Shown piece after piece: positions 3,701 to 31,740 of a stretch of DNA of 64,000 nt. The first letter of the stretch is position 1. Each line of letters begins with the position of its first letter. The notes beneath the pieces are model-generated. The model saw nothing but the letters and a program-made list of their open reading frames with translations, was not told the DNA's origin and ran no database searches. Source of the DNA: a virus; the IMG/VR virus record IMGVR_UViG_3300049215_000686, positions 1-64,000 of that record; one strand, 5' to 3'. Made by a program: the position numbers and the translations under genes.

Positions 3701-6324
3701 TCTTTGCCAATCTCAAAGGTAACTGGGATTTGCCCCGTGCCCGCCGCGCCTTGGGCGTTAATGTTCACTTGAACCACATTCCCGTTAATTTGCAGAGAAA
3801 CATCGGCTCCAACAAAACGAGAATCATTTGTAATACTCGCCCGAAGCATACTTTCGGCTTCAACAGAGTTAATGTCACTATTTCTCGATCCTACCGGAAC
3901 AGGAAGTCCATAACTAGGATGTCGATCGAGTTCTCCTCGCTCGACTTCCAAAGCAAGCCTCAATGCCTGAACCGCATTATTATAACCAAATGAACGCTGA
4001 ACATCGCCCACAGCAGAAACGGAAATATCCTGCGCATTAATCTCGTCTAAGGCGATATCAACCTTAAATATCTGTTCTGCATGAGAGAGACGATTAAAAA
4101 GGGAAGTCGGACGAATCGCCGCAAAATCATTAGGAATTGCGCCGCTTGGTATAAGGATCATGTCTCCTGGTCCAACTGTACCTGGCAAATGAGCAAACAG
4201 AGTCGGATTTCCAGAGGGGATATACATCGCAAGATTCGCAACCCCGTCTACCGTTACTTTCCATTCTCTTCCGCCGATATCTTCAATATTCAAAATCTGT
4301 CTTCGCGTTGAAGCCGCAGATCCACCTTTCAGGGTGATCTGTTGGCCAATTGCAAGTTTTGAAATATCGGTAACAATAAAAGTTCTACCGTTTGCACCCA
4401 AAATCGACTGAGTAAATCCAGTTTCATCAATATAGGGGGACCGCAAATTGTTCAAAATAATCAATTCACGAGAGCGTTTTGCGTTACCCAAATACTTTTG
4501 AGCCAACGTATCAAGCGTCACTCCTCGCTGATAAGGAATCGCAATCGAACTGTTGGGCGTTTGAAGTCGGTCGGTATCCGGAAGATGGGTGTTTGCAGAC
4601 AAAAATGGATCAGGATCTCGTTCTAAGAAGAATTGCCCGGTTGCTAAAGTGCTCAAGAACGCTTGTTTACTTTCTTGAAGAGCAACAGCAATAATAATGT
4701 CGTCTTCATTCGGCAAACGATTTACCGAAACAATCGGATTGGGCACATGATAAGTGGAAGAATAAACAGGATCCATGGCGCCAATGGAAGAAACATAGTT
4801 GTCGGATATTTGCTGAAGACTCGAAGCCAATGCCTGGATTTGCCCGGAAGTAAGTTGCTGAGATTGAGATCTAAAATCATCAATACCTTGGCTGACCACG
4901 TCGGGGATATCAAGTTGATCGATCGTTTTGTCTAAGAAAGTATCCGTAGAAAGAGCCTTAATCACCAGAGTATCGGCCTCGGGAGAGATATTCTTCTTTT
5001 CTGGATCGCTTTTGTCTTCCCCAGCAGGAGTAAGTTGCGAAGAGGCTTTGGTCGCATCAAAACCTACTGACCGAAGGACCAATGAATTAGCCGCTGAAAG
5101 GCTGATACTTTTAGGGATTACGGTCGCGTCCGCCAATGAGACTTGCGGCGTATGTGGATTTCTTTCAGAGGGATCGTTTAACGCGTCAACGATAGATTGT
5201 CGATTCCGGTCAGAGTTCAAAAGAAGGGATTGGCGATTGGCAACAAAAATATCGCCAAAAGTGCGAACATCAGAAATCAGTCCGCCGATGTCCTGGTAAA
5301 CCAAAAGCGCTTGGTTATAAATATTAAAAACCGAGTTAATGTCCGAATGAACTCCCGAAAGGACGTTCCTCGCCGCCTGAATCGTCTTTCTCGAACTGGT
5401 TAAAACATCGGTAACGGATTTAATAATGCTTTGAGAATCAGGAGACGGGATATCTGCATCCACTTCTTCTTGAAGAGGAATCGCACTTACCACATCCCAA
5501 GACTTAAGGATGATCTGGTAACGATAAAGAAGAGGATTCGAAACATCTCTTCTCATTTCGAAACTAACTGGCGTCACCACATATCCGATATTATCTTTGC
5601 CGGAACCAAAGACCAATCTCAGTTTAGTGCCGTCAAATCCTTTTTTGAAAAGTTTTTTGCCTTCTGCATACGCGATTAAGAAATTATTAAGTTGCCAAAA
5701 CTGGTAATAGCCGGTCTGGGTTAAGTCATAATTGAGATCATTAAGATCATTGTCTTGACCTCCAATAACGGCTTTAGCGATAGATTTAGGCGCCTGAAGA
5801 AGTCCGACCACAGCGCTTGATGCGGCAGGCAGCAGTTGTTGAGCCACCTTAAGGGCAAGCGACGGCTTTCTGTTGCGGTTCGCCTTTTGGGGCAAAAATC
5901 CGGTGGTTCCTGAAATTTGGATCATCCGAAAGATCATTCCATTATGCTCTTCCAGAATTCCTTTATTTGTCGCTGAAACGTTAATTGCAAATTGATTTGA
6001 AACGCTGATCTGAGCGGGTGAGATGTTAAACGTCACAATATTGGCATTTAATCCAATTTGGGAAAGGATCGACTGATCCACTCGCTGACTGGTAACTACT
6101 CCCTGGTCGTTCGCCATACAAACGGCAAAATAGTACGGAAGATGCTTATTGAAATTTTCGTTAACGGTATTTTGGATCTTGCGTGCGAGTTCCGGACTTA
6201 AATTCCGATCAATGATCGGAACCGCGTTCTCGTTAGGATTAAGATTTTGCGTACCCGGAATCTGAAGCCCAAGTGTTTTGCTGAGATCAAAACTTCCGAG
6301 ATCTGGAGGTGAAGGAAGACCCAT
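3697..6324 (-). CDS. Baseplate protein with LysM-like and C-terminal gp25-like wedge domains
   Basis: GVTLDTLAQKYLG..LIILNNL (LysM-like); ALRLALEVERGELDRHPSYG (gp25-like); position in the tail cluster. Confidence 0.7.
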   Translation of the reverse strand: MGLPSPPDLGSFDLSKTLGLQIPGTQNLNPNENAVPIIDRNLSPELARKIQNTVNENFNKHLPYYFAVCMANDQGVVTSQRVDQSILSQIGLNANIVTFNISPAQISVSNQFAINVSATNKGILEEHNGMIFRMIQISGTTGFLPQKANRNRKPSLALKVAQQLLPAASSAVVGLLQAPKSIAKAVIGGQDNDLNDLNYDLTQTGYYQFWQLNNFLIAYAEGKKLFKKGFDGTKLRLVFGSGKDNIGYVVTPVSFEMRRDVSNPLLYRYQIILKSWDVVSAIPLQEEVDADIPSPDSQSIIKSVTDVLTSSRKTIQAARNVLSGVHSDINSVFNIYNQALLVYQDIGGLISDVRTFGDIFVANRQSLLLNSDRNRQSIVDALNDPSERNPHTPQVSLADATVIPKSISLSAANSLVLRSVGFDATKASSQLTPAGEDKSDPEKKNISPEADTLVIKALSTDTFLDKTIDQLDIPDVVSQGIDDFRSQSQQLTSGQIQALASSLQQISDNYVSSIGAMDPVYSSTYHVPNPIVSVNRLPNEDDIIIAVALQESKQAFLSTLATGQFFLERDPDPFLSANTHLPDTDRLQTPNSSIAIPYQRGVTLDTLAQKYLGNAKRSRELIILNNLRSPYIDETGFTQSILGANGRTFIVTDISKLAIGQQITLKGGSAASTRRQILNIEDIGGREWKVTVDGVANLAMYIPSGNPTLFAHLPGTVGPGDMILIPSGAIPNDFAAIRPTSLFNRLSHAEQIFKVDIALDEINAQDISVSAVGDVQRSFGYNNAVQALRLALEVERGELDRHPSYGLPVPVGSRNSDINSVEAESMLRASITNDSRFVGADVSLQINGNVVQVNINAQGAAGTGQIPVTFEIGKE

Positions 6325-16270: not shown

Positions 16271-17047
16271 CTAGGCAAAGTCCAAAGAGGATTCATCGGG
16301 AGTTTCTTCCAAAGGATCCTTAAGTCCGAAGATCTCTCGCTCCAAAGGCTGGAATTCGACCATCTTGCGGGCCATGTCCATGGTGACCGCGCACTTCAAA
16401 CAATTACACTCTTTGCAGCAAGGCACGCAATTGTCCCAAAGATAATCTTTTGAATTATCAATTCGGTCAATACCGTTGTAGCGGTAATAAGATTTTTTAT
16501 CCGGAGTCCACCTTATGGTTGAGGGAGGACGATTGCAAAAATAGCAATTTCGACTGGTTAGATCCATGAATTCTTCTGTACTTAATCCGAATGAATAACC
16601 TCTTTTGGGCGCACTCTTACGGTAATCGGAATAAAGAAGATTAAAAGCCGGATTGAGTCCATTTTGGGTTTTATGCATTTTGCAGCCGCATGACTTAATC
16701 AGGGGACCGTTTTGACCAAAAAGGCGGGTAAATTTTATTTCTTTCTTTTCCCCGCAATCACACAAACAAAGCCACTTGCCGGGAGTAGAACCATAATCAA
16801 TAACTACGAGATGACCGAATGTCATCCCGATTAGATTTTTGCCGTTACGACAGCCACAAGACCTAGGACTACCAGATCGGAGATCCTTTAAAGCAACATT
16901 GTCAGAGGTCCTCCCACAATCGCATAGACACTTGACCCTTCTATAACTCTTCTGATCGCGCGGCAAAATCGCCGTAATGACAAGGTGCCCAAAACGCTGC
17001 CCGATCAGGTTTTCATCTTTTTGACCGCCATCTTCCGTGAGGCTCAT
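16271..17047 (-). CDS. HNH homing endonuclease with two CxCDCG/SCGC repeats
   Basis: GQRFGHL..CLCDCG..SCGC twice; CYFC..GIDRIDN..NCVPCCKECN. Confidence 0.8.
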   Translation of the reverse strand: MSLTEDGGQKDENLIGQRFGHLVITAILPRDQKSYRRVKCLCDCGRTSDNVALKDLRSGSPRSCGCRNGKNLIGMTFGHLVVIDYGSTPGKWLCLCDCGEKKEIKFTRLFGQNGPLIKSCGCKMHKTQNGLNPAFNLLYSDYRKSAPKRGYSFGLSTEEFMDLTSRNCYFCNRPPSTIRWTPDKKSYYRYNGIDRIDNSKDYLWDNCVPCCKECNCLKCAVTMDMARKMVEFQPLEREIFGLKDPLEETPDESSLDFA

Positions 17048-17975: not shown

Positions 17976-18581
17976 TTAAATCGATGCCGGGGGGCTGATT
18001 TCTGCGGGGGATTTAGCATTTCGATAAGAATTCCTGCGAGAAAATGTATCGGTTTGAGAATGACAATTGGGACACAGGAACCGAAGGTTCTCAAGCCGAT
18101 TGTCATTGGGGATTCCGTTTTTATGATCCAATTGAAGGGTCAGCGGGAGCCCCCTATGAAAGGGCTCACAGCCACAAATGGCGCATTGATATGGAATTAG
18201 TTTTAGATCGAAAACCCTTTTCTTTACAACGCCGCGAGCCGTTTCACTATTTTCGCAAAAAATCTCCTCATTTGTCCTTTTCTTCGCCGGGGATGACCGG
18301 AAGTGTGAAATATCGATTTTAAGTTCTTGGGCCTTTTTACGAAGAAACTGGGTATTCTCCGTTCGATAACCCAATTTGCGAAACACTTCTGTAAATCCAA
18401 ATGATTGAGAAATGATTTCTTTTAGTTCAAAGATAGCATTTGGGTCATTCCAGTTTTTCTTCCGATTCGCACATGGAGAATAGCATTGCCAGCAGAGTGA
18501 TCGATAACGCCGTTTTCCATTCCGATACCCATTGGGTGTACAGGAGCGCTGATTACATTTTGGGCAAATCGGTGCGTCCAT
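17976..18581 (-). CDS. HNH endonuclease
   Basis: CAICG..LQLDHKNG..DNRLENLRFLCPNCH. Confidence 0.85.
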   Translation of the reverse strand: MDAPICPKCNQRSCTPNGYRNGKRRYRSLCWQCYSPCANRKKNWNDPNAIFELKEIISQSFGFTEVFRKLGYRTENTQFLRKKAQELKIDISHFRSSPAKKRTNEEIFCENSETARGVVKKRVFDLKLIPYQCAICGCEPFHRGLPLTLQLDHKNGIPNDNRLENLRFLCPNCHSQTDTFSRRNSYRNAKSPAEISPPASI

Positions 18582-18907
18582 ATTTTTAACATACGGATTT
18601 GATAAAAATTACCCGGACTCCGACCCGGAGAGCACGGCGGTGAGATGGGACCCAATGAGGCTCCAGGGCCAAAAACACAATAAAATCAGAATCTTAGACC
18701 CCCACCCCTGGGTGAGATACGCGGGTAGACCCTAAGAGCATGCCGGGGGTATTTTGGTGGGATGTCATATCTGACACTCATTGATATCATTGAGGAATTT
18801 AAACTGTAACGTGGGATAGCACAGCAACTTCAATAGGTTATGCGCAGCGCTTCACAATATAGACCAATTCTGTAACCGAGCGCCCGTCAATGTCAATGAT
18901 ATCAAAA

Positions 18908-18923
18908 TGTTCTACGTGGAACA
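18908..18923. promoter_or_regulatory. parS-like site
   Basis: TGTTCTACGTGGAACA, one mismatch to the palindrome TGTTCCACGTGGAACA. Confidence 0.55.
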
Positions 18924-19130
18924 GTCCCACATTATAAGCCGTCAAAACTCGAATAGCGCAGTAGATTAGCCAGAGGAGTATATCCCGTCTCCAGCCAGCC
19001 TATGCGCACTTAACGACTTCAATTCAACAATAGACGCATTCAGTCAGGATACTGCGCCGCCATTCCCAATCCCATCCCCGGTGCCCTTGGCACCCTTCCA
19101 GGGATGCCCAAGGCAAGCCGAAACCCCTTT

Positions 19131-19232
19131 CCCATCCCATTCCATCCCATTCCATCCCATTCCCGCATAGATCCGCTTAGAGGCGATCCTAGAGCGCATT
19201 GGCTTGTATATCCCCAATATCCCCAATATCCC
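19131..19232 (+). repeat. Short tandem repeats: (C/T)CCAT x6 and TATCCCCAA x2.5
   Basis: cccatcccattccatcccattccatcccat; tatccccaatatccccaatatccc. Confidence 0.8.
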
Positions 19233-19508
19233 GTATAACTGAACGCCTGTACTAAGTACTAAACCTAAAGACTTGTTGTTGTTGATTCTTTCGACACTGC
19301 CTAAGTTTTAATCACCTTGCCTTGTAAACAATCAAGAATTAAAAACGGCTTAACTTAACAAATCAGTGTTTTCGGGGGATTAAGATCGTTCATCTTTTAA
19401 ACACCGAAGAGACTGAACGCCTATTTCATTGGGTTTTTAATAACCCGTTGTTTATTTGATTTTGTAACCGATACTAGACTAAACACTTAAAATAATTGAA
19501 TTAATGCA

Positions 19509-19524
19509 TGGCATTAGTGATGCA
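19509..19524 (+). promoter_or_regulatory. Sigma54 (-24/-12)-type promoter
   Basis: TGGCATTAGTGATGCA with GG-N10-GC spacing; AT-rich region upstream. Confidence 0.55.
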
Positions 19525-19534
19525 ATAGTCTATA

Positions 19535-19922
19535 GGCGTGACCGGCGAGTTGAAGCCAGCCGGGGCAAATTGAGGCTGTGGCCAGTTACAGGGCATGGCA
19601 AGAGCCGCATCTAATTGCGAACACGTCAGGCAATACAGCGTCGATTAGAAAAGCGAGCAACGATCGGTAGGATGCACCGATTGCGGGAATGTTGAGAGAC
19701 GTAGTCTGCCCGCAATAGGGAATTTCTGAAACAAGCGCCGCACGGGTATGAAAGTCGCCGTGGGACAGGCCGCTTTGACGCCGATCCGCCTGAACGGGAG
19801 TTTAGGGCTATATCAATGCGACGAGTTTTTGATCAAGAGAGTCAAAACGTATCGCAAAGAGTAGACAAAAAGATTGGATTGGGAGATCGGGGAGTTTTCC
19901 TTGATCTCCCAATTCGTCTTTC
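19535..19922 (+). ncRNA. Putative structured ncRNA of about 390 nt
   Basis: ORF-poor, GC-enriched, at least 8 hairpins, ends in a 16-bp stem. Confidence 0.5.
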
Positions 19923-20084
19923 GAGAAGGAGATTTTATGCAAGACCTAATGAACGGCATTTATTTGTTGATCACGATTTTGAGTGTTTACGCAGCGCATA
20001 ATATTGCGCTTTTTCAATAATCAAGTTTCTAACCGAGCAAGTATTCACTTGCTCAAAACCGCTGCCAGTCAACCTACCGTTGCA

Positions 20085-20116
20085 CGCCTACCTGACCTTA
20101 ACGGGTTAGGTAGGCG
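20085..20116. terminator. Strong hairpin (terminator or processing site)
   Basis: CGCCTACCTGACC/GGTTAGGTAGGCG followed by CCTGTCTTTT. Confidence 0.5.
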
Positions 20117-20157
20117 CCTGTCTTTTGAGCGGATAAACTAAATGATTTAAGGCATTT

Positions 20158-20367
20158 ATGGAAATTGATAAACTAAAAAAAGCAACTATTTATTTTCAGT
20201 TTATGGACAACAACCTGATCAATTATGTTGCCTTAATTCATCTATTAGATATCCGCATTTCTACAATGTATAGCGACATAGACGGCGGTACCGGGTATTC
20301 AAAACATTTAAATAATGCCTTACAAGTAAACCCCGACGAAACTGAAGGAGAGGAAAAATCCCTATGA
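20158..20367 (+). CDS. Hypothetical protein
   Basis: ATGA overlap with the AAA gene. Confidence 0.4.
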   Translation: MEIDKLKKATIYFQFMDNNLINYVALIHLLDIRISTMYSDIDGGTGYSKHLNNALQVNPDETEGEEKSL

Positions 20368-21368
20368 AACCCACTGAACTAAAATCGTTAATTTCTGCTC
20401 GTTTCAAAGCCCAAATCAAGCGTCCTTTGCATATTGAATCAAGTCCTGGCGTTGGCAAAACTCAAATCGCCGCGCAAGTTGCACAAGAACTAGGCGTTGG
20501 GTTTATGGCCATTCATGCGCCTTTGCTCCAGCCCGAAGACTACGGTTTTCCGGTGATTGCGGGCGATAAGTCGGACGTGAGTTTTTTGATATCAACTCAT
20601 AAATTCCCTATTGAACGCTCGACTTGCCCAGACGAAGGGATTTTTTTAATTGACGAACTAAGTCAGGCCGACAACTCCGCTCAAAAGATCCTCGCTAATC
20701 TAATTCAAGAGCGCGAGATTCATGGTCAACGCCTTAAGTCCGGCTGGCTCATTGTGTCAACAGGCAATCGAACTGTAGACCGAGCGGGTGCCAATCGGCT
20801 TTTGTCTCATTTAAAAAACCGAATCACGACCATTGAACTTGACGCATCACTTGATGACTGGTGTCATTGGGCTTTTAATAACGGCATTTCCACCGAAGTC
20901 ATTGCGTTCTTGCGATTTAGGCCGGAGTTGTTAAACGCCTTTGACCCGCAACAAGAGATAAACCCAACGCCTAGAGCATGGTCTGAAGGTGTCTCGGCGG
21001 CGCTTGGTGTAATCGATCCTTCCCTAGAATTTCCGGTTTTCAAGGGAGACGTAGGCGAGGGCGCGGCAAGCGAATTTGTCGGGTTTTTAAAGATTTATCG
21101 CGAATTGCCGTCGCCCGATATGATTTTGTTGAATCCTGAAAATACCGACGTACCCGCGAAGCCTGTGATTCTTTACGCGCTTTGCGGTGCGCTCGCTCAT
21201 AAAACGACCACCGATAATTTTTCCAGGATGATGCTCTATATTCAGCGCATGCCTCAAGAATTCGCGGTTCTTTTCGTTCGCGATGCCATTCAACGGGTCC
21301 CGGAGATTCAAACTTCGAAAGACTTTATTAAATGGGCTACGACCGATGGTGCAAAAATACTCACCTAA
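20364..21368 (+). CDS. MoxR/dynein-related AAA+ ATPase
   Basis: Walker A SSPGVGKT, Walker B FLIDE, TGN, NR, TPRAW. Confidence 0.85.
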   Translation: MKPTELKSLISARFKAQIKRPLHIESSPGVGKTQIAAQVAQELGVGFMAIHAPLLQPEDYGFPVIAGDKSDVSFLISTHKFPIERSTCPDEGIFLIDELSQADNSAQKILANLIQEREIHGQRLKSGWLIVSTGNRTVDRAGANRLLSHLKNRITTIELDASLDDWCHWAFNNGISTEVIAFLRFRPELLNAFDPQQEINPTPRAWSEGVSAALGVIDPSLEFPVFKGDVGEGAASEFVGFLKIYRELPSPDMILLNPENTDVPAKPVILYALCGALAHKTTTDNFSRMMLYIQRMPQEFAVLFVRDAIQRVPEIQTSKDFIKWATTDGAKILT

Positions 21369-30334: not shown

Positions 30335-30585
30335 TTAAGTAACGCTGGGGTTTTCTTCAGCGTCCCTTCCATTTCCATTTTGGCAAGCATCCTGACGGTT
30401 CTCAGCAACAAATCCCGAAGCACCGTCACATCGATCTCTAATGCCTGGATCTTTTTCTCTTGTTCTTCGATCTTCTTGATCAATTTTGTCGTGGGGTGTT
30501 CACTGATCTTGTTTGCCATATCCTTTTTAACCACTTTTATATTCCAATCATCACTTTGGATTCTTCCTGTGGCTTTTCTAAGCAT
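30331..30585 (-). CDS. Coiled-coil hypothetical protein
   Basis: ORF; likely start at MANKIS. Confidence 0.45.
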
Positions 30586-31703
30586 TCAGGACCAATCACG
30601 ATTTTCTTCATTTTCTTGCCAGGAACATTGAACATCAAATCGGAAAGCGCGTTTTCTAAAATCGAGCGAAGTCCCCGCGCGCCCGTTCCTTCATGGTGGG
30701 CTTTTTCTGCGACACGTTGGATAAATTCGGCATCGTATTCGATTTCGCAATCGTCTAAACTAAAGAGCGCCTTGTATTGCTTAGTGAGCGCGTTCTTGGG
30801 CTCTACTAAAATTTTGGCTAAATCATCCACCCCCAAAGCCTCAAATTTTACGATTACCGGCAAACGGCCAACAAATTCCGGAATCATTCCGAATTTTACC
30901 AGGTCTTTATGGGTGATCTTTTTCTTGGCGCTGTCCTTTTGGGAGTGAATTCCCAAAGACTTTTTCTTGTTTGAAGAGTCTGTGAGCGTAGTAAACGCTC
31001 CGCCCACAATAAAAAGGATATTGGTGGTATCGATTTCTTGAGTGGAACTCGTCGGCCCCTTCTTCCCGCCAGTTGGATTGATCGTAACCGTCGTTCCTTC
31101 TAGCATCTTTAAAAGTGCCTGTTGAACACCTTCTCCTCTCACATCGCGGCCACTCGTTTCAGAGCGAGCGATCTTATCGACTTCATCGATATAGATAATC
31201 CCTCGTTCTGCCTTTTGAATATCACCGCCTGCGGCAACGACAAGTTTCCCAAGAACCATTTCCACATCATCTCCAACGTAGCCGGCTTCGGTCAATGTCG
31301 TCGCATCCGCCATAGCGAACGGCACATCGAACAATTTCGCGAGCATCTGAAGGCTATAGGTTTTACCGCTGCCGGTCGGTCCTAATAAGATGACATTTGA
31401 TTTTTGGACTTCTATTTCCATTTTTTTCCCGATCCGCTTGTAATGGTTATAAACAGCGATCGAGAGAAGTTTCTTTGCTTCGTGTTGTCCGATTACATGC
31501 TCATCTAGGAATTTAACGATAGCGACGGGTGTAAGTTCGGTTTTGATTCCGGTTCCCGTTTTCTTACGAGAAGTTTTCTCACTTTCAAAGACGTTTAAAC
31601 ACTCATGCACGCAACTGTCGCAAATGAAAGCATTGATGCCCTTAATCAAATGCTTGACTTGAATCTGTGGCGCACTGCAAAAAGAACATACGGGTTCATT
31701 CAT
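30537..31703 (-). CDS. clpX: ClpX ATP-dependent unfoldase
   Basis: CSFC..ICDSC zinc domain, [43 protein letters not shown]. Confidence 0.92.
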
Positions 31704-31740
31704 CCAATGATCCCCCAAACTTCATTGTAGGAGATCCTTC

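Follow-up and report, generated by a model that had tools for sequence, protein, structure and literature searches.

The segment at positions 19509-19922 of the window, the 64,000-nt stretch analyzed here (bases 1-64000 of the 157,131-bp IMG/VR virus record of an uncultivated phage, with an estimated completeness of 96%), probably serves as control region and 5′ leader for a small transcription unit made up of a promoter, a leader, a peptide gene, and a terminator. We put the probability of this reading at roughly 60%. The first-pass annotation had described the same segment as a free-standing structured noncoding RNA of about 390 nt. Structured RNA was borne out for the 3′ third of the segment by comparison with a related phage locus (L113, see below). 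Only the last 150 bases are conserved as hairpins, which argues for a cis-acting leader element and not for a free-standing large RNA.

The phage genome has a G+C content of 45%, and tail-sheath, baseplate, and ribonucleotide-reductase genes are present on its record. The longest stretch of this genome without an ORF of at least 100 aa, 18582-20363, contains the segment. A minus-strand HNH endonuclease gene (17976-18581) forms the left border of this gap, and on the right lies a 69-aa ORFan (20158-20367) that overlaps the start codon of a MoxR-like AAA gene (20364-21368, plus strand). Three more plus-strand genes come after the AAA gene and encode a 277-aa protein, a DUF2201 metallopeptidase/VWA protein, and an HATPase. 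The 69-aa ORF scores as coding-like by hexamer usage, and no homologue of it was found among 5.8 billion proteins. Two HNH-type endonuclease genes lie on the minus strand within 2.3 kb (16271-17047 and 17976-18581), the second with atypical hexamer usage, as expected for a mobile gene. Genome-wide, GATC occurs 1,136 times (about 1.85 times the expectation), and GCGATCGC is absent.

The segment is ORF-poor, as had been noted, and shows no hexamer coding signal in any frame under a model trained on the long ORFs of this genome, which gives the AAA gene a steady in-frame score. Each of the three stop codons occurs often in every one of the six frames, and therefore stop-codon recoding is excluded; the hexamer scores and the stop-codon distribution together rule out a coding remnant or a recoded gene. 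The first-pass annotation had seen no tRNA, tmRNA, RNase P, or intron hallmarks, and an Rfam search of the whole window at gathering thresholds gave zero hits to any family, riboswitches and GOLLD, ROOL, and HEARO included. Rfam searches in E-value mode on three sub-ranges returned noise only, the best sub-threshold scores being miRNA-type matches to the long hairpin and an atpB match of 18.6 bits against a threshold of 37.4. ARAGORN found nothing in the segment.

A protein search of a larger collection returned relatives of the AAA protein with 67 to 77% identity on contigs of 116 to 173 kb. The locus designated L113 lies on a Logan contig of 170,896 nt. Its downstream gene order matches that of the window, and upstream it has a 1.6-kb gene-free gap; at the position of the 69-aa ORF it carries an unrelated 93-aa ORF. 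By blastn, window positions 19756-20127 align to L113 positions 4340-4684 (E value of 5e-14), and the promoter region aligns too. No DNA homologue of the segment was found in GenBank phages and plasmids, in the 7 IMG/VR and 18 JGI loci with AAA relatives and the whole records of five of these, or in 80 HNH loci. No homologue of the segment was reached by exact or gapped segment patterns in IMG/VR, through tail-sheath relatives, or by the AAA search in species genomes, and tblastn with the peptide found nothing. A pattern built on the conserved block gave 2 viral and 73 genome matches, all of which were chance and were discarded.

The gap contains further sequence features besides the segment. 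A second conserved noncoding block (window 18596-18800, L113 3186-3400) includes CCCCGGCATGCTCT, TGGAGCCTC, and CCCATCTCACC, and its minus-strand end consists of a hairpin and TAATTTTT (18629-18612) directly before the endonuclease gene; this block could be another small RNA or leader. A parS-like palindrome, TGTTCTACGTGGAACA, is present at 18908-18923 as a single copy in the 157-kb genome, and a perfect version, TGTTCCACGTGGAACA, lies at 2582-2597 of the related locus L116, in the same noncoding gap on the opposite side of the peptide unit. Adjoining the parS-like site are perfect 13-bp inverted repeats, TTGATATCATTGA (18781-18793) and TCAATGATATCAA (18893-18905), 99 bp apart. Positions 19040-19500 contain iteron-like direct repeats, namely, three copies of CCATCCCATT with a 10-bp spacing (19132-19163) and two copies of ATATCCCCA (19208-19228), and after them a 240-bp AT-rich tract, a layout that looks like an origin.

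The sigma-54-type −24/−12 promoter TGGCAT-N5-ATGCA (TGGCATTAGTGATGCA) is present on the plus strand at 19509-19524, where the first-pass annotation had placed it, and is the only match to TGGCAY-N6-TGCW in the 157-kb genome. It carries GG at −25/−24 and GC at −13/−12, ten bases apart, as expected of a sigma-54-dependent promoter (TGGCAC-N5-TTGCW), and the inferred transcription start is near G19535. The AT-rich block immediately upstream (AAATAATTGAATT..., 19490-19508, plus strand) is near-identical in L113 and similar in L116. Orthologous promoter sites were found at the same place in L113, L118, and L116, with differing spacers (TAGTG, ATGCG, and TATAG at the conserved sites). The site reads TGGCAT-ATGCG-ATGCAATA in L113 and likewise in L118, and TGGCAT-TATAG-GTGCAATA in L116; therefore, both boxes are kept and the spacer changes. 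A sigma-70 extended −10 reading fits the TGGTATAAC variants only and leaves the fixed TGC box unexplained.

Strand-biased enrichment of the motif backs the sigma-54-type reading along with conservation across relatives and spacer variation. In 165 kb of nonredundant loci holding AAA relatives, TGG[CT]A[CT]-N6-TGC[AT] occurs 26 times in the gene sense and 4 times antisense, with 1.26 expected per strand, and a backwards-pattern control in the same loci gave counts of 2 and 0. Most of the relatives' sites are 30 to 60 nt upstream of an ORF start, often that of the AAA gene itself. The loci L010 to L014, L114, L116, L121, and L123 have many sigma-54-type sites before genes, with up to 4 per 5 to 11 kb, and such sites in phages with the AAA/VWA module often have TTACTTAG downstream and TTGATTTT upstream. 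A k-mer search for a phage promoter motif found none.

Neither a phage-encoded sigma-54 nor an enhancer-binding protein was found in the genome. The sole PF00158 match is a ClpX-like protein, the neighboring MoxR-like AAA protein is without GAFTGA, and a cognate AAA+ activator with a GAFTGA loop was not detected within the phage genome. A host activator must therefore be assumed, and its supply by the host is possible. A ClpX-like AAA+ protein with the ClpX zinc finger is encoded at window positions 30537-31718. In two sources (PMC5053324; bioRxiv 10.1101/2023.10.13.562163), phage use of host sigma-54 is described as rare, with the Pseudomonas phage YuA (Ceyssens et al. 2008, as cited there) as a precedent.

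Evidence for a structured leader comes from its 3′ part, where L113 keeps the three hairpins of window positions 19789-19921, namely, the GGGA-loop, TGCGA/TTTTGA, and terminal stems. A covariance model built from the window alone (R1; 19770-19925, three hairpins) found L113 4352-4498 over its full length with 46.9 bits and an E value of ∼7e-11, and no match besides L113 in 31 sources. In the two-sequence alignment, 12 of 45 pairs are changed on both sides with pairing kept, and 95.4% of cells are paired, with four broken pairs. Shuffle controls gave a mean of 6.0 double changes (standard deviation of 1.8), with 0 of 500 reaching 12, and sliding the partner by 1 to 3 columns gave 1 to 3 double-change pairs and 29 to 59% paired. 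These figures come from two sequences, with the structure derived from one of them and the alignment fitted to the model. The MFE fold of L113, computed independently, has the same three-hairpin layout. The collection of homologues and the covariation analysis proposed in the first-pass annotation thus yielded 12 double changes in the three 3′ hairpins; the domain has a single homologue, so the covariation rests on two sequences, and the 5′ part yielded no consensus structure.

The individual hairpins, all on the plus strand, follow a mostly unpaired conserved block (19756-19788) that includes the invariant GCTTTGACGCCG and contains a 12-nt exact match, the longest in the leader. Hairpin E7 (19789-19806) has a 7-bp stem and a GGGA (GNRA) loop that is identical in L113; five of its seven pairs are changed (three on both sides, two on one side) and none is broken. 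Hairpin E9 (19817-19856) has a two-tier stem, TGCGA/TCGCA plus TTTTGA/TCAAAA, and a 9-nt loop, TCAAGAGAG, again identical in L113. Five of the 14 pairs of E9 are changed on both sides, two on one side, and two are broken. Hairpin H1 (19869-19921) has a 16- to 18-bp stem with arms at 19878-19893 and 19898-19913 and an outer extension; it is kept in L113 with compensatory changes, is not followed by a U-tract, and has two G-U pairs that work on the plus strand only. On the plus strand, the 150-nt domain has z-scores of −4.74 in the window and −3.83 in L113; the minus-strand values are −3.60 and −1.38, respectively. The two phages also differ in where their G-U pairs occur. The plus-strand z-scores and the shifted G-U positions point to an RNA read from the plus strand. 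The 150-nt domain is a new, so far two-member predicted structured leader motif behind a sigma-54-type phage promoter.

The upstream part of the leader (19535-19755, plus strand) is variable. All stems listed by the first-pass annotation, which here comprise CCGGC/GCCGG, CTGTGG/TTACAG, ATCGGT/ACCGAT, TTGCGGG/CCCGCAA, and CACGG/CCGTG, are present in the sequence at the coordinates given there, and most recur in the MFE fold. Conservation beyond chance was seen for the GGGA-loop, TGCGA/TTTTGA, and terminal stems; the ATCGGT, TTGCGGG, CACGG, and CTGTGG stems gained no support. Positions 19535-19755 are ∼40% identical to L113 and share no consensus structure with it, and a model of the long-range pair and three stems (R2, 19619-19790) found no match in L113. 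By collinear anchors, L113 lacks ∼39 nt surrounding the ATCGGT hairpin, and CTGTGG/TTACAG has no counterpart there by eye. For the long-range pair suggested earlier, CGTCAGG (19624) with TTTGACG (19774), both partners occur in L113, as CGTCAAGG at 4255 and CTTTGACG at 4355. The partners are nearly invariant, so the pair is neither supported nor refuted, and CGTCAGG at 19624 may pair with the 19756-19788 block. Location between a promoter and a conserved ORF together with compensatory change, as expected of a cis-regulatory leader, was found for 19770-19925 only and not for 19535-19755.

Folding energy alone would have misjudged the region both ways. On the plus strand, 19509-19922 has an MFE of −146.5 kcal/mol and a z-score of −3.56, and the minus strand is as good (−3.94). 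The first-pass annotation had looked to folding energies better than those of shuffled controls, and here the core of the segment fell short: positions 19526-19869 (344 nt, without the terminal hairpin and the promoter palindrome) have a z-score of −1.36, with 9 of 100 shuffles as good. Three of 24 random 414-nt windows from the same genome have z-scores of ≤−3.3, and in a composition regression over 752 genome windows the plus strand of the segment ranks 103rd. The folding energy of the whole segment is weak evidence and is unremarkable for this genome. By the same regression, the genome's most over-folded window, on both strands, is 19873-20286, and the stretch 19860-20135 has a z-score of −7.9. 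The plus strand of the region is purine-rich.

Directly behind the structured domain lies a small gene that was absent from the first-pass annotation. An AAGGAG ribosome-binding site (19926-19931, plus strand) follows the terminal stem by 5 to ∼12 nt and precedes an ORF for a 27-aa hydrophobic peptide (19937-20020, plus strand; ATG at 19937, stop codon at 20018-20020), the ATG of which lies 16 nt beyond the foot of H1. The GGAG of the ribosome-binding site is itself paired with TTTC in a small conserved helix. Homologous ORFs of 24 to 39 aa with strong ribosome-binding sites occupy the same place in L113, L118, L116, and L117. The peptides share Gly7 and a hydrophobic core, and the three closest share Ser/Ala-Ala-His. 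Several codons differ synonymously between the window and L113; the hexamer coding score of the peptide is neutral only, and no Pfam, PHROG, or Atlas match was found. Promoter and ORF lie ∼400 nt apart in the window; the corresponding distances are 350 nt (L113), 125 nt (L118), and 62 nt (L116). Leaders of the L118 and L116 type, ∼60 to 125 nt long, are without the hairpins, and the domain is therefore dispensable for peptide expression.

Downstream of the peptide start, terminator scans and folds identified a small hairpin with T5 that overlaps the end of the peptide ORF (19993-20010) and a second small hairpin (20035-20054), in place of which L113 has a different one; both are on the plus strand. 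A strong intrinsic terminator follows (20085-20126, plus strand) with a 14-bp stem, a TTAA loop, and TTGTCTTTTG. L113 keeps the TTAA loop and the tail of this terminator, and six of its stem pairs are changed on both sides and three on one side. Strong terminator hairpins after the small ORF were found in four of five phages (the window, L113, L116, and L117, not L118).

Taken as the leader of a small transcription unit, the segment would work as follows. Host RNA polymerase with sigma-54 would bind the 19509-19524 site and presumably start near 19535. The transcript would run for ∼400 nt without an ORF, reach the strong ribosome-binding site and the 27-aa peptide gene, and mostly end at the 20085-20126 terminator. 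The first ∼220 nt of the leader are free to vary among relatives, and the three hairpins in the last 150 nt would be kept by selection. Their most likely role is in cis, on the stability or translation of the peptide mRNA, and perhaps they also set the passage of polymerase through the terminators into the AAA (MoxR-like)/VWA operon.

This last function, taken as the principal one, gives the best rival reading, although we consider it unlikely: the leader would be a processive antiterminator or attenuator RNA, the hairpins of which act on polymerase or sense a signal and control read-through of 19993-20126 into the AAA/VWA operon. The window and L113 combine a long structured leader and strong terminators with the lack of a second −24/−12 site before the AAA gene. 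The short-leader phages fit the same correlation, as L116 gives its AAA gene its own sigma-54-type site directly upstream (2929) and L118 is free of strong terminators from the peptide gene to the AAA gene. No sigma-70-like promoter was found between the terminator and 20158, nor was any further sigma-54-type or sigma-70-type promoter found for the AAA/VWA operon in this phage. However, the correlation rests on four genomes, too few to decide, and an operon promoter of an unrecognized type is possible. The domain has no Rfam match of any kind, a distance of 80 to 300 nt separates the hairpins from the terminators, and no alternative pairing between the two was found. A fuller version of the idea, in which the three-hairpin domain with its TCAAGAGAG loop would be a cis RNA switch for sigma-54-started read-through of the tandem terminators into the AAA/VWA operon, coupling a host stress or nutrient signal through the host activator, is speculative and has the odds well against it.

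The view of the first-pass annotation, taken to mean a free-standing, trans-acting noncoding RNA of ∼390 nt with its 3′ end at the terminal stem, is improbable. Such an RNA would have its own promoter, no ORF, and conserved 3′ hairpins, and its long terminal stem could halt a fraction of the polymerases or serve as a processing site. However, the stem is followed by poor U-tracts, TTCGTCTTTCG in the window and GAATTTCGAA in L113, and H1 is no efficient terminator, as no other promoter serves the conserved ORF downstream of it. The peptide ORF starts 16 nt past the foot of H1, and the RNA therefore cannot end there. The 5′ 235 nt have no conserved structure, two thirds of the RNA is unconserved, and sister phages are without the domain. 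The proposal of a large phage RNA class did not stand either, since a search of 31 sources turned up the 150-nt domain in a single further contig and sister-phage leaders are ∼60 to 125 nt long.

More doubtful still is a type I toxin-like module, with the peptide as a membrane toxin, a folded 5′ UTR that blocks translation until it is processed, and an antisense RNA as the antidote. The hydrophobic peptide of 24 to 39 aa behind a strong ribosome-binding site, the long and structured 5′ UTR, the TTTC/GGAG helix at the ribosome-binding site, and the tight insulation of the unit by terminators would all suit such a module. Against it, the best antisense promoter, ATGCCG-16-TAAAAT (3/6 and 5/6), is weak and reads TAAAAA in L113, and the peptide has neither a charged tail nor a family match. 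Least probable of all is the absence of any functional RNA, with the hairpins arising by chance or as inverted repeats at the DNA level in a rapidly changing spacer with replication or partition sites; the iteron-like repeats, AT-rich tract, and parS-like palindrome in the gap, the equal folding of both strands of the whole segment relative to shuffles, and the noisy folding background of the genome would allow it, but the compensatory changes, the differing G-U positions of the two phages, the z-score of −1.38 for the L113 minus strand, the conserved hairpin loops, and the placement of the element precisely between a promoter and an ORF that are both conserved all argue against it.

Read as the leader of a small transcription unit, the segment places a conserved sigma-54-type promoter at one control point of a large uncultivated phage group, and the −24/−12 motif is common in the loci of phages with the shared AAA module. 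The window adds an unclassified conserved leader RNA between this promoter and the MoxR/VWA operon and a previously unannotated family of predicted membrane peptides of 24 to 39 aa. The leader would count as a new phage regulatory RNA if it gates terminator read-through, and otherwise as an ordinary stabilizing leader.

Set against known systems, the promoter resembles sigma-54 (RpoN) promoters in having TGG at −26 to −24 and TGC at −14 to −12 with exact spacing, a spacer that varies among orthologues, and sense-strand sites tens of bases before genes. It differs in being a single site in the phage's 157-kb genome, in having T for C at −21 and a variable −15 position, and in belonging to a phage without an activator gene or an identified enhancer site. 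The type I toxin mRNAs tisB, shoB, and zorO have long 5′ UTRs, and the unit resembles them in placing a hydrophobic peptide of ∼25 to 30 aa behind a long folded untranslated leader. Unlike them, it has no antisense RNA gene, no sequence likeness to them, and a sigma-54-type promoter. The put RNA of phage HK022 is a cis-acting processive antiterminator, with put elements of ∼70 nt close to sigma-70 promoters. In both cases, stem-loops of a phage transcript are positioned after a promoter and ahead of intrinsic terminators, with an operon beyond. Here, the domain is longer and lies behind a sigma-54-type promoter, and its putative function is deduced from gene order. A further comparison is with the structured 5′ leaders of bacteria and phages (riboswitch-like, protein-binding, or stabilizing stem-loops). 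The 150-nt domain differs from these in matching no Rfam family and having two members only, and the upstream two thirds of the phage leader is unconserved. It is like them in lying between the promoter and the first ORF, in its conserved loops and covarying stems, and in a last hairpin that abuts the ribosome-binding site.
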